Numbered from the stretch's first letter, positions 19,587 through 22,283 are shown. The stretch: DNA of 64,000 bases from Myxococcota bacterium (GCA_046075485.1 JBJTQF010000371.1:29217-93216), one strand, 5' to 3'. The notes: generated by a model from the letters alone, not told the origin. Numbers and translations are program-made.

Positions 19587-22283
19587 TTACTCGTCTGGTG
19601 TCACAAAGATGGTGTCAGCGGTGCCACTGAAGGCAGAGGCATCCATCGGCACCGCCACCAACGAGTTAGCATTGGCGACACTGGAGGCCACCATCACCGG
19701 CGCGTTGACCGAGCTTCCCAGCAGCTCAAGGGAAACCGAGTCACCAATGATCACACCCACCACATGGTCGGCCATGATGGTGGAGTCACCATTCTCGTCC
19801 ACCGAGGAGGTCACAGAGGTGCCCAGCACTTGAGCCATCATGCCGTCGCCAATGATCACCCCCACCACATGGTCGCCAATGATCACCCCCACTACATGGT
19901 CGCCAATGATCACGCCCACCACGTGAGAGCTGATCACATAACCGTTGAGGGCGTCACCAATGATCACGCCCACGACATGGGAGCTGGTGAGACTGGAATT
20001 CATGTTCTGCAAGAATGAGAGATTCTCGCTCACCCAGGTCGAAGAGGGCGCATTCACAATCGGAGAGACACCCGTCAAGTTGGTGAAGTAAATCGAAGGA
20101 TCCATCGGGACAATGGCCAAGCTGAGCACAGAGCCGTTGAGCAAGGTCACGTCCTGAGCCACTTCCGCCGTGACGCTGGAGGAGGTGCCCCACCCGAAGC
20201 TCTGCGGGGTGGAGAAGGTCACGGTCAAGGGCTGATACCCGTTCGGATTAGAAGCGGTCAAGGCATTCAAGTAGGCTTGATTGCTGGTGATGGCCACGGG
20301 AGCCCAGGCATTCAAGGGGCCCAAGGGCTTGGTGACATACTGTGTGGCAATCCAGCTCGGCATATTGTTGACACCGGGCTGAGCTTTCATCAGGATGGCA
20401 GCGCCCTGGGTCACAGGGTCGGCATTCCATGCCTTCAAGGCAGCGTAATAGCCCTCGCTCACGTAGTAGAAGCTGCGCGGCGGGAGGCTGACCTTACCAT
20501 TACCATCCACCACACGGTCCACTTGCAGACCAAAGGCAACCGGGCTGGAGGAGCTGGTTGTCACGGTGGAGACCGTGGCGACCACAGCTTGGCCCTTGTT
20601 GTTGGTGATCACGCCAAAGGTGGAGCTGCTGGTGCCGAACCAGTGACCGGCCACCAGCTTACCCTTCGCAGGCTTGCCTTCGGTGTCGATGACCTGGATC
20701 AAACCCGCCGTGGCCCACTTGCCGCCATAGACGTACAGCAGCGGCAGGACGTTGACAAAATACTGGTTCTGATTGAGGGTCTCTGGATTGTTCTCGACGT
20801 AATTTTTCGCACGCAGCGCACTGATCACCCCCATCTCTTGACGGGTCGCAAACTGAGCGGACCCCCAGATGGCGTTGGTGTGGGTTACGATGGCGGAGCG
20901 GGCCACGTCCGGGTCCGCGCCCAAAGCCAAGAGCAGGGCGGCAGTCCCCGAGACATGTGCAGCAGCCTGGGAAGTGCCCGACATCAGGTAATAGTGCAGC
21001 GCAGAAGGATTGCCTGCCTCGATGCTCTGGGCCACAATGCCATCCACCTTGCCGTCATTGTTGACGTCCAAGCTGCCATCACCACCGGGGGCGGTGACAT
21101 CGACGGAGGGCCCAAAGTTGGAGTAATTGGCGACCCACGACTTTCTGCCACTGGTCAAGCGGCTGGCACCGACGCTGATGGCTTCGACGTAGGCACTGGG
21201 ATAAGATGCGTCTGAGGCGGCTTCGTTGCCAGCAGCCACCACCACCACACAGTTGTTGTCGAAGGCCGTCTGCATGGCGGCGCTCATGGCGCTGCCCGGG
21301 ATATAACCATAGGGGAAGGACAAGCTCATGTTGAGGATGTCAGCGCCGTTGCTGGTCGCAAACAGAATGGCGTCCACCAAGTCCAGCTCGTTGCCCGCAT
21401 TTCCTCCGTCGAGCACCCGCACCGGCATGATGCCCACACCCGGGGAAACCCCAAAACTTCCACCATTGGCGGCAATGATGTTGGCAATGTGGGTGCCGTG
21501 GCCGCTGAGGTCGTTGGCATGGGTGTCGTCTCCTACGAAGTCATAACCCGCCGCCACCGGAGAGCCCGCCAAGTCCGGACTGGCCACATATGTATGGGTC
21601 GAGGTTGTATAGTTTTCGTAAGCGACACCGGAATCGATGACGGCCACGGTGACGGTTGCCAGAGCAGGCATGTCAATATCGTCGCCGAACCACCGATAGT
21701 TCCAGCCGATCTGGTCCAGATTCCACTGATAGGCGCGATAGGTGGCAGTTCCATCGGCCAGCGAAGCGGCTCGTACCACCCCTTCCGGCTGGCTGGCTTC
21801 AATCACCCGCTGCTCTTTCAGCGTCGCCAGAAAAACGTCCAACGAGCCCCCTTCGGGAACACTGACGCGCCAATATCCACTCGGGCTCTTTCGCAATACT
21901 CTTGAGCCAATCGAGGCCAGCCATGCTTCGGCTTCGGCTTCAGCTCGTGGCTTCACCAGGGCCACACCGTCACGCACTTCGACGTTCCGCCCATTCAGCT
22001 CCAGGGTGCGGGTGGCCAAACTGCTCACCTGCACCGAGTCTGTCTCTCTCAGTGACGCCTCATCCATGCCGGGGCCTTCACGCTCATCCAGCGTAAGATC
22101 CACTCGCTCATGGAGGGTGCCCACCGAGGTCGTCGTTGCCGAGGGCCAGAGCCACATACCGGCCAATGCCAGAGCACCCGCTCCAGCCATCCAACGTGCG
22201 CGAGAGGTCCAATCTCGCTGCCCATCGCTTTTTTCGTGATATCGGGTCACCTTGCTCCAAATGCTTCGCGTGACTTTGCCCAT
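19587..22283 (-). CDS. S8 (subtilase) serine protease with N-terminal anchor, propeptide and repeat-bearing C-terminal tail
   Basis: Catalytic triad VAVIDSG / GHGTHIA / GTSQAAAH; oxyanion-hole motif AAGN; AGGAGG RBS. Confidence 0.92.
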   Translation of the reverse strand: MGKVTRSIWSKVTRYHEKSDGQRDWTSRARWMAGAGALALAGMWLWPSATTTSVGTLHERVDLTLDEREGPGMDEASLRETDSVQVSSLATRTLELNGRNVEVRDGVALVKPRAEAEAEAWLASIGSRVLRKSPSGYWRVSVPEGGSLDVFLATLKEQRVIEASQPEGVVRAASLADGTATYRAYQWNLDQIGWNYRWFGDDIDMPALATVTVAVIDSGVAYENYTTSTHTYVASPDLAGSPVAAGYDFVGDDTHANDLSGHGTHIANIIAANGGSFGVSPGVGIMPVRVLDGGNAGNELDLVDAILFATSNGADILNMSLSFPYGYIPGSAMSAAMQTAFDNNCVVVVAAGNEAASDASYPSAYVEAISVGASRLTSGRKSWVANYSNFGPSVDVTAPGGDGSLDVNNDGKVDGIVAQSIEAGNPSALHYYLMSGTSQAAAHVSGTAALLLALGADPDVARSAIVTHTNAIWGSAQFATRQEMGVISALRAKNYVENNPETLNQNQYFVNVLPLLYVYGGKWATAGLIQVIDTEGKPAKGKLVAGHWFGTSSSTFGVITNNKGQAVVATVSTVTTSSSSPVAFGLQVDRVVDGNGKVSLPPRSFYYVSEGYYAALKAWNADPVTQGAAILMKAQPGVNNMPSWIATQYVTKPLGPLNAWAPVAITSNQAYLNALTASNPNGYQPLTVTFSTPQSFGWGTSSSVTAEVAQDVTLLNGSVLSLAIVPMDPSIYFTNLTGVSPIVNAPSSTWVSENLSFLQNMNSSLTSSHVVGVIIGDALNGYVISSHVVGVIIGDHVVGVIIGDHVVGVIIGDGMMAQVLGTSVTSSVDENGDSTIMADHVVGVIIGDSVSLELLGSSVNAPVMVASSVANANSLVAVPMDASAFSGTADTIFVTPDE
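19740..19979 (-). repeat. Five 27-bp coding repeats, each encoding HVVGVIIGD
   Basis: Copies at 19953-19979, 19899-19925, 19872-19898, 19845-19871 and 19740-19766; they differ only at synonymous positions. Confidence 0.95.

Follow-up and report, generated by a model that had tools for sequence, protein, structure and literature searches.

We analyzed a stretch of 64,000 nt from a Myxococcota bacterium (GCA_046075485.1, JBJTQF010000371.1:29217-93216; in the following called the window), which carries on its minus strand a gene for an S8 protease (subtilase) with a C-terminal tail containing five exact copies of the nonapeptide HVVGVIIGD, three in tandem and two dispersed. The catalytic residues are intact, the copies are identical as peptides and have diverged in their DNA only silently, and a STAND gene is the conserved neighbor. 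A comparison with relatives suggests that this tail is the local form of a repeated-peptide cassette that occurs family-wide in S8 proteases of uncultured Myxococcota. The features are listed below in window coordinates, with the predicted local distance difference test (pLDDT) of the AlphaFold model where it applies.

22446..26432, minus strand: STAND neighbor gene, 1328 aa, with a diverged cyclase-homology region, an AAA_16 domain (residues 425-610) and TPRs (Pfam); 162 nt upstream of the protease gene, same strand
19587..22283, minus strand: S8 protease gene, 898 aa, with the repeated-peptide tail (from the list of open reading frames (ORFs) and translation; stop codon at 19587-19589)
22158..22208, minus strand: N-terminal hydrophobic helix of the protease, residues 26-42, behind a Lys/Arg-rich start (helix in the AlphaFold model)
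21771..22013, minus strand: propeptide-like alpha/beta domain, residues 91-171 (model, pLDDT 69-94), followed by a low-confidence linker at 174-181
20925..21656, minus strand: S8 catalytic domain, residues 210-453, with D217, H262, N353 and S438 (Pfam, E 1.2e-36)
20049..20759, minus strand: family-specific beta-rich C-terminal domain, residues 509-745 (pLDDT mostly 75-94; the homologous region in the profile search below)
19953..19979, minus strand: HVVGVIIGD copy 1, residues 769-777 (exact match)
19845..19925, minus strand: HVVGVIIGD copies 2 to 4 in tandem, residues 787-795 (19899-19925), 796-804 (19872-19898) and 805-813 (19845-19871)
19740..19766, minus strand: HVVGVIIGD copy 5, residues 840-848 (exact match)
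19590..19739, minus strand: post-repeat C-terminal segment, residues 849-898, ending in DTIFVTPDE (pLDDT below 35; conserved with the closest relative, P0002)

The protein is an S8 subtilase of the thermitase/subtilisin type. Its catalytic domain matched PF00082 (Peptidase_S8) with 126.9 bits against a cut-off of 21.8 (E 1.2e-36, residues 210-453), and the best solved structures for this domain were a subtilisin-like protease, Ak.1 protease and thermitase. Both the catalytic triad (D217/H262/S438) and the oxyanion Asn (N353) stand in the proper order and are invariant among 11 aligned sequences; in a 44-sequence alignment, invariance is strict for N353 and S438 and nearly so for D217 and H262. 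NCBIfam models returned S8 names only, all sub-threshold (mycosin, 118.6 bits against a cut-off of 278.75). Pfam detected nothing besides Peptidase_S8 in the 898 residues at E values up to 1, and hence no repeat family, and the family's C-terminal region is covered by no Pfam or NCBIfam model. The helix at residues 26-42 of the model is read as a signal peptide or signal anchor, by which the protease would be exported; relatives possess a similar basic, then hydrophobic N-terminus. The domain at residues 91-171, without a match in Pfam, may be I9-like.

We modeled the full-length protease with AlphaFold2 from a family alignment of 44 rows (mean pLDDT 74). Residues 776-898, a stretch with four of the five copies that runs to the C-terminus, obtained pLDDT values of 24-45 and no confident structure, which proves neither disorder nor order. 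The 19-residue hydropathy window (Kyte-Doolittle) exceeds 1.8 across the tandem copies. A search of the ESM Atlas with residues 500-898 returned only leads below 0.8, with TM-scores below 0.3.

The copies had first been noticed in a reading of this DNA without database searches (the sequence-only reading). Their number, the arrangement of three in tandem and two dispersed, the restriction of their codon differences to silent sites and the intact protease triad, all claimed there, were confirmed. When the five copies are compared, four of 27 nucleotide columns are variable; each is a third codon position, and every change is silent (His, CAT/CAC; Val, GTC/GTG/GTA; Gly, GGC/GGG/GGT; a second Gly, GGT/GGC), corresponding to proportions of synonymous (pS) and nonsynonymous differences (pN) of 0.375 and 0 by the Nei-Gojobori method. 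Tandem Repeats Finder reported the tandem part as a 27-nt unit in 2.9 copies at 19845-19922. Outside the five copies, no window of the protein shares at least five of nine residues with HVVGVIIGD, and in a six-frame scan of the source assembly (8.22 Mb, 59.5% G+C) the nonamer and looser forms of it were confined to the protease ORF. Metagenome runs containing the window DNA were of freshwater and lake origin, and no RNA run was listed for it. The stretch recurs in lake-water contigs of another study. The two differences that fall within copies (at 19911 and 19914) are silent, whereas six of the ten other coding differences between 19590 and 20400 replace a residue, both sets being small. The tandem part is split in the lake runs into short contigs of high depth, so that the comparison concerns base differences rather than copy number.

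To define the family, eight sequences of the C-terminal region were used to build a hidden Markov model (HMM), which was run against all six-frame ORFs of the fetched loci (E value of 1e-10 or better). This search replaced tblastn with the window domain alone, which was too insensitive (7 of 88 loci), and yielded 37 family ORFs including the eight seeds and the window gene. An own short peptide of 6 to 14 residues in at least three exact copies is present within the last 420 residues of 31 of these ORFs; among the remaining six, three contain two copies and three none. The sequence-only reading had proposed beforehand to check whether homologs each have a repeated core of their own in this position, and these 31 of 37 ORFs give a positive answer. 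The region behind the S8 domain is rare: HMMER gave 17 matches at E 1e-3 or better and seven at 1e-10 among 1.84 billion representative proteins, and 41 of 401 sampled genomes of the phylum contained it, which belong to 33 of 254 genera. Most of the named records among the loci are metagenome-assembled genomes of Myxococcota or “Deltaproteobacteria”. A word-based homolog search with residues 480-898 recovered the protein itself only, among 8000 scored candidates, and a related-locus search with the single C-terminal protein returned no relative, the source genome being possibly outside that search.

Two architectures can be distinguished. In the dispersed type, the copies are spaced by 10-30 variable residues and lie inside the region that aligns with the folded beta domain of the window protein. 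An example is GLATSPLG with six copies in L014, and most of the dispersed motifs end in x-x-Pro-Leu/Phe-Gly (TSPLG, SSPLG, TSPFG, SIPLG). In the tail type, which includes the window protein, P0002 and a group with GF(A/I)SSSLG, the folded domain is free of copies and the array follows it; tandem units of this kind are GFISSSLGT (seven copies) and GFASSSLGD, and the array of the window protein has no confident predicted structure. Further units of the family are GLSSSPLG, GSGIVTSPVG and GLSTSPLG (five copies each), GIATSPFG, GLITDPLS (four copies), GLKSIPLG, GLGSCPLG (four copies), GLSSSTVN(V/A) and GFAGSVVS (six each) and GMASSAII. One copy is usually preceded in the family sequences by an acidic D-x-D-x-D-G stretch of the calcium-binding kind.

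The closest relative, P0002, is 45% identical to the window protein over a full-length alignment. It has about ten tandem nonamers of the GALSTLAGE/D type at the place of HVVGVIIGD, and its post-repeat part, LGSS..P.MVASS...DTIIVTPDE, resembles that of the window protein up to the end DTIIVTPDE. HVVGVIIGD, GALSTLAGE and GFASSSLGD align in a common frame, [G/H]-hydrophobic-hydrophobic-x-x-x-hydrophobic-G-[D/E/T], so the units form a homologous series in which that of the window is divergent and unusually hydrophobic.

The extreme C-terminus is conserved as well. Tail-type proteins end in forms such as DTI(F/I)VTPDE, ...LITE or ...LITEE, and dispersed-type proteins in forms such as G-x-G-S-E-P-L-E (window 19590-19616 and the C-termini of P0002, P0003, P0006-P0008, P0010 and the protein on contig C274 of the source genome). 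This shared end may be a sorting or recognition signal.

Selection on the peptide was examined across the family. For each protein we took all non-overlapping windows with up to two mismatches from its commonest 8-mer and counted Ser AGY/TCN switches as replacements. Pooled over 32 of the 37 ORFs with at least two copies, pS was 0.344 versus a pN of 0.073. An example is L002, whose eight copies are variable in 12 of 21 nucleotide columns, with a single Leu/Phe change and Ser codons switching between AGC and TCN. Because the DNA has diverged at silent sites while the peptide has not, the copies are not recent duplicates; they are old, appear to be kept by selection on the peptide and differ between lineages. 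The sequence-only reading had argued for selection on the peptide rather than recent slippage from the window copies, and the family-wide silent divergence bears this out. When 36 C-terminal regions are aligned, dispersed-type copies from different proteins fall into four to five shared column blocks. As the copies stand at homologous columns and yet are lineage-specific, all copies of one protein must have changed together while staying identical. Even if the units are not released, 8-10 residues that are identical at 4-6 homologous positions within a protein and vary between lineages are an unusual pattern, which shows clearly that a constraint acts on the peptide in a concerted manner and calls for an explanation.

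The conserved STAND gene, absent from the sequence-only reading, is the strongest contextual clue. A STAND-like ORF of at least 700 aa lies within 400 nt of 15 of the 37 family genes (one antisense case, L042, was dropped). The architectures at the relatives' loci are Pkinase-AAA_16-TPR-GAF-HisKA-HATPase or Guanylate_cyc-AAA_16-TPR by Pfam, and the N-terminal 411 aa of the window STAND align with the Guanylate_cyc-bearing part of the neighbor at L090 (E 2e-16). Cyclase-type STANDs accompany the tandem-tail proteases (window, L090 and L091) and kinase-type STANDs mainly those of the dispersed type. The 8.2-Mb source genome contains 53 AAA_16 matches above the cut-off. Among all ORFs of this genome, 8 of 13 directly adjacent foreign STANDs, and one located a gene away, had their best match in the STAND beside the S8 paralog on contig C274, mostly with about a two-fold margin in score. 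The L090 and L091 STANDs matched best the cyclase-type paralog C32 and second the window STAND, for which C32 is likewise the best match in the source genome. By this best-hit comparison within the source genome, the STAND neighbors of the family appear to form largely one orthologous group. The window STAND contains no 19-residue window with a mean Kyte-Doolittle hydropathy of 1.8 or more, and hence no transmembrane segment by that measure, and the same holds for the other STANDs. A complex prediction with the TPR region of the STAND (620-1328) and the protease tail (760-860) gave a score of 0.00, a “no answer” that was obtained without controls and is evidence neither way.

We tentatively favor, at somewhat less than an even chance, the explanation that the copies are processing units that are cut out by the protease, releasing a lineage-specific peptide tied to the STAND partner. 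The protease would be exported, and its own catalytic domain, or a sister molecule, would cut the flexible tail. This would release several copies of one peptide, the nonamer HVVGVIIGD or a register-shifted form such as GDHVVGVII. The peptide would be what functions, in all likelihood as a signal, with the adjacent STAND-TPR protein as its cytoplasmic partner in the role of sensor or feedback regulator. We arrived at this explanation because 8-10 residues that are exact in all copies and change between lineages typify multi-copy products or sites read by a single recognition pocket, and because ordinary structural repeats lack such exact identity. Standard subtilisin substrates contain Ala-Ala-Pro-Phe or Ala-Ala-Pro-Leu, which resemble the Pro-Leu/Phe-Gly endings of most dispersed units, and the nearest solved enzymes are of the thermitase and subtilisin types; both facts argue for processing. 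The low pLDDT of residues 776-898 fits an accessible, flexible substrate region and is in line with this as well. Further points in its favor are the silent divergence of the copies within the family and between strains, the homologous columns of the dispersed type, the recurrent STAND adjacency with its pairing of STAND and protease types, and a second repeated-peptide protein beside sensor genes in the source genome (contig C153, below). A role of the STAND as partner is suggested because a TPR-bearing cytoplasmic protein beside the source of a secreted peptide is the RRNPPA arrangement (PMC11343458), and because peptide-processing systems coupled to STAND-TPR proteins are described for Actinobacteria (PMC7159879).

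Several points weigh against processing units with a STAND partner. In the AlphaFold model of the L014 C-terminal region (358 residues, mean pLDDT 82), the six GLATSPLG copies appear as loops preceding beta strands of a folded domain. The 10-residue copy blocks have pLDDT values, in order, of 90-91, 83-91, 68-81, 49-76, 65-73 and 55-85; three copies lie within blocks of 83-91, and the fourth (residues 239-247) is mostly below 50. Judged from these ordered loops, a structural or binding element looks likelier than a precursor. The window unit ends in Ile-Ile-Gly-Asp, without the Pro-Leu/Phe signature, and beta-branched residues at P1 make poor subtilisin sites. The tandem arrays of P0003 and P0006 are not strictly identical. 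For 22 of the 37 family genes, a STAND-like ORF is missing from the flanking 400 nt; seven of the 22 have a contig end on one side at about 1.2 kb or less. The STAND neighbors being cytoplasmic, a released peptide would need import. Candidate parts of ABC transporters were found among the scanned neighbors at two loci only (Pfam): L014 has an ATPase that bears the C-terminal domain of oligopeptide transporters, and L093 a permease component of the inner membrane; none was found among the Pfam-scanned neighbors of the protease in the window. The adjacency could equally mean that the STAND only regulates the protease. What goes beyond the sequence pattern, namely export, cleavage and its sites, and the release, uptake and sensing of a peptide, we infer.

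The strongest competitor is a structural or binding repeat, a serious possibility that we still place on the unlikely side. Identical surface loops or strands would hold the C-terminal domain together or bind a repeating ligand such as a cell-surface polymer, a polysaccharide or a partner protein; in the window, the hydrophobic Val/Ile nonamers could form a beta-zipper, associate in an amyloid-like manner or anchor the protease at the surface. Loops ahead of beta strands in a confidently folded domain, as modeled for L014, speak for such a role, and so do copies at conserved domain positions in many relatives, the acidic D-x-D-x-D-G stretch usually ahead of one copy, the nonamer frame shared by HVVGVIIGD, GALSTLAGE and GFASSSLGD, and a hydropathy above 1.8 over the tandem copies. 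However, such repeats usually keep only key positions, and 8-10 identical residues with silent divergence and a change between proteins exceed the needs of packing. The window tail lacks a confident predicted structure and a match to any Pfam repeat family at E up to 1, and the conserved STAND neighbor would be left unexplained. The sequence-only reading had listed an amyloid or beta-solenoid tail as one possibility, which the pLDDT values of 24-45 for residues 776-898 in the model from the 44-row alignment neither favor nor disfavor. For the dispersed type, no Foldseek match to the model of the L014 C-terminal region reached E 0.001, those obtained being macroglobulin/Ig-like at 3e-3 or worse; VIA-align returned generic macroglobulin/Ig-like sandwiches with Z up to 7.5 over residues 29-271, and these matches cover mainly the first sandwich, so that the outcome hardly bears on the motif-containing half.

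The copies could also be the protease's own cleavage sites within an autoregulatory pro-region, a pseudo-substrate, timer or sacrificial C-terminal propeptide that delays or tunes activity or governs release from the cell and yields functionless fragments. We consider this unlikely. C-terminal extensions that are removed during maturation are common in secreted subtilases, and the Pro-Leu/Phe-Gly endings, the flexible tail and the intact triad all suit such a role. A protease site needs about 4-6 fixed residues, however, as opposed to the 8-10 found here to be identical in all copies, and a timer explains neither the lineage-specific change of the unit nor the coupling to a TPR sensor.

A classical RiPP (a peptide made on ribosomes and modified after translation) would require that the copies are core peptides modified by heterocycles, methylation or epimerization, and perhaps macrocyclized in a PatG-like way by the S8 domain, which is improbable here. 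Enzyme-fused repeated cores are known elsewhere, from OphMA and the BURP cyclases, and the units of the relatives are rich in Ser, Thr and Cys. The best NCBIfam name for the STANDs is TIGR03903, “TOMM system kinase/cyclase fusion protein”, and weak similarity exists to the “cyclophane RiPP TPR protein HaaT” family. These matches are far under the cut-offs, with 152.9 bits for the window STAND and 107-134 bits for three others against 705.75 for TIGR03903, and HaaT far below its cut-off. HVVGVIIGD itself is free of Ser, Thr and Cys. Within about 10 kb of the protease in the window (41 ORFs, Pfam), no gene for a YcaO protein, cyclodehydratase, radical-SAM maturase, methyltransferase or lanthionine synthetase was found, nor was a peptide-modifying gene among 110 scanned neighbor ORFs at 32 loci of relatives and paralogs (Pfam). 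A radical-SAM-type ORF at 2681-3268 is of the activating-enzyme type and about 16 kb away. The protease-precursor fusion envisaged in the sequence-only reading survives in part: the 31 of 37 homologs with own repeats and the silent divergence keep the fusion as such alive, and the analogy to PatA/PatG is not supported, as the PatA/PatG model scored 37.2 bits against 421.05, neither protein was among the best 60 of 78 solved relatives and no modifying gene was found. The likeness to omphalotin noted there proved to be compositional only, homologous units such as GFASSSLGD and GALSTLAGE being rich in Ser/Thr.

The proposal that the units mimic the catalytic-His helix (H-G-T-H-V/I-A-x-I-I) and thereby act as auto-inhibitor, also put forward in the sequence-only reading, is very improbable: HVVGVIIGD resembles HGTHIANIIAA after His262 in composition, but the units GALSTLAGE, GFASSSLGD and GLATSPLG of relatives are unlike the helix although the helix is conserved, and this helix is buried in S8 folds. 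A functionless product of recent slippage or recombination, or an assembly artefact, is hardly credible, for although three tandem copies form a 27-nt repeat and a paralog on contig C347 is cut within its array, as repeats break assemblies, two copies are dispersed, four silent differences separate the copies, the same stretch occurs in contigs of another study, and the recurrence in 31 of 37 relatives with high silent divergence refutes this idea as far as sequence allows.

Compared with known systems, the preferred reading of processing units with a STAND partner is close to Rap-Phr (RRNPPA) quorum sensing of Bacillota. There, PMC11343458 describes tandemly duplicated Phr propeptides as multi-copy secreted precursors that are matured by extracellular proteases and sensed by an adjacent cytoplasmic TPR receptor. 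The family studied here shares several copies of a short lineage-specific peptide and a gene adjoining a cytoplasmic TPR protein (15 of 37 family genes). It differs in that the precursor is fused to its presumed maturation protease in a protein of 898 aa rather than being a small propeptide, which places it outside the RRNPPA definition, and in that the host is a diderm myxobacterium whose neighbor is a giant STAND NTPase with kinase or cyclase parts and not of the Rap/NprR/PlcR type. No RRNPPA receptor with a helix-turn-helix or Rap-type output was found in the neighbor position, which is held by STAND AAA_16 proteins with cyclase or kinase/His-kinase domains.

FxSxx-COOH peptide-processing systems of Actinobacteria, as reported in PMC7159879, combine a diverging precursor and a dedicated peptidase and are coupled to AP-ATPase-TPR proteins. 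Common to both is a fast-diverging peptide and a peptidase that are genetically coupled to a STAND ATPase with TPRs. The FxSxx-COOH peptidase, however, is a separately encoded zincin metallopeptidase, each precursor has one C-terminal peptide and a radical-SAM/SPASM maturase is often present, whereas here an S8 domain is fused to multiple copies and no maturase was found.

TIGR03903 proteins are linked to thiazole/oxazole peptide clusters, including in Sorangium, and the window STAND shares with them the arrangement of a large kinase/cyclase-ATPase-TPR protein beside a peptide precursor, here a putative one. By score it is not a member, and no cyclodehydratase or TOMM precursor is nearby. Cyanobactin PatA and PatG are likewise S8 proteases linked to repeated cassettes. 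Cyanobactin precursors combine conserved recognition sequences with variable cores, and the multi-core precursor PatE has a small gene of its own. A cluster with a PatD-type cyclodehydratase and a separate PatE-type precursor was not found here, the Pfam scans of 41 window ORFs and of the 110 neighbor ORFs giving no YcaO or cyclodehydratase match. OphMA (omphalotin) and the plant BURP cyclases unite, as would be the case here, an enzyme and several substrate copies in one polypeptide, but they are eukaryotic and their enzymes are a methyltransferase and a copper cyclase, respectively, and no modification chemistry is implied here. A borosin-type SAM-dependent N-methyltransferase domain was not found in the protease, Peptidase_S8 being its only Pfam domain. 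RTX nonapeptides (GGxGxDxUx) also repeat every nine residues, contain Gly and Asp and are located C-terminally in secreted proteases. HVVGVIIGD has a single Gly-Asp pair and deviates from this consensus, the window protease has an N-terminal signal-like helix, no HemolysinCabind match was detected by Pfam at E up to 1, and RTX copies within one protein are not identical.

The literature searches turned up no account of the family. It resembles known kinds, namely propeptides with multiple copies, fusions of enzyme and precursor, and STAND-coupled peptide systems; what appears to be new is the combination, in Myxococcota, of repeated units fused to an S8 protease with the co-inheritance of a STAND kinase/cyclase. 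A more far-reaching version of the preferred reading is a peptide-pheromone system of new build in diderm social bacteria, in which a multi-copy propeptide is fused to its own maturation protease, the lineage-specific peptide serves as “pherotype” and a STAND TPR sensor drives Ser/Thr-kinase/His-kinase or cyclase outputs. We regard this version as unlikely; it would be a parallel to RRNPPA signaling in Bacillota made of unrelated parts. If the units are released, the family would provide the first bacterial protease carrying its own multi-copy product peptide and a candidate class of ligands for the numerous unexplained STAND kinase/cyclase proteins of myxobacteria, and peptide-based cell-cell signaling would become directly testable in a diderm multicellular lineage, with the peptides readable from each genome.

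On contig C153 of the source genome (about 25142-26062, minus strand; locus L096), we located a secreted protein with nine copies of the VIITPADN type, (V/I)I(I/L)(T/G)PADN. It adjoins a Pkinase-AAA_16-TPR gene and a GAF-HisKA-HATPase-REC gene, which together represent the S8-linked sensor domain set split in two. This adjacency is one case and not a statistic; in the pheromone version, the protein would represent a variant of the principle that lacks the protease. Scanning the whole genome for ORFs with four or more exact 7-mers gave 186 rows, dominated by DNA tandem repeats and known repeats of the MopE/TSP3 type, and was too noisy for a link between repeats and STANDs.

Some loci showed further particularities. 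At L090 (6511-8613) and L091 (5325-7448), the other neighbor of the protease is a SAVED-CHAT protein, with the cyclase-type STAND on the opposite side; the SAVED-CHAT pair is known from defense proteases triggered by cyclic oligonucleotides. NtrC-type sigma-54 activators are encoded within two genes of the protease at L029 (7892-9304), L078 (2469-3515) and L094 (12843-14252), and their company with a kinase-type STAND and the protease hints at a three-part regulatory module. Two family genes lie side by side at L016 (9350-14869), with the peptides GSGLVTAPLG and GSGLVTTPLG, and about 3 kb apart at L038 (3996-12052), both with GIATSPFG. The paralog of the source genome on contig C347 (1-2481) has tandem DGFASSSLG units and is cut by the contig end within the array, and contig C212 (6-203) begins with a short sequence that matches the model's repeat part, so the assembly was probably broken at the repeat. 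P0012, P0015 and P0017 (82-134 aa), which matched the window repeat region, consist almost entirely of tandem nonamers of the types HVIGALLSS, (Y/C)RGVVLGD and AGMILGDA and may be chance low-complexity matches or stand-alone forms.

Downstream of the protease gene on the same strand (14106-19385), the window encodes an M74 murein endopeptidase-HEAT fusion and an SLT lytic transglycosylase that contains TPRs and starts with a long stretch rich in Ser and Lys. We rejected these hydrolases as functional partners because no such neighbors were seen among those scanned at the loci of relatives. Between the stop codon of the protease gene and the next gene lies a 13-nt tandem repeat, GGAGCAGGTTCAC, in 5.8 copies with 93% matches (19461-19535). 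The exact GGAGCAGGTTCAC unit occurs four times in the assembly, three times within this array and once on contig C107, and the lake contigs of the other study have 39 nt (three units) fewer in the array, i.e., its copy number varies among strains.

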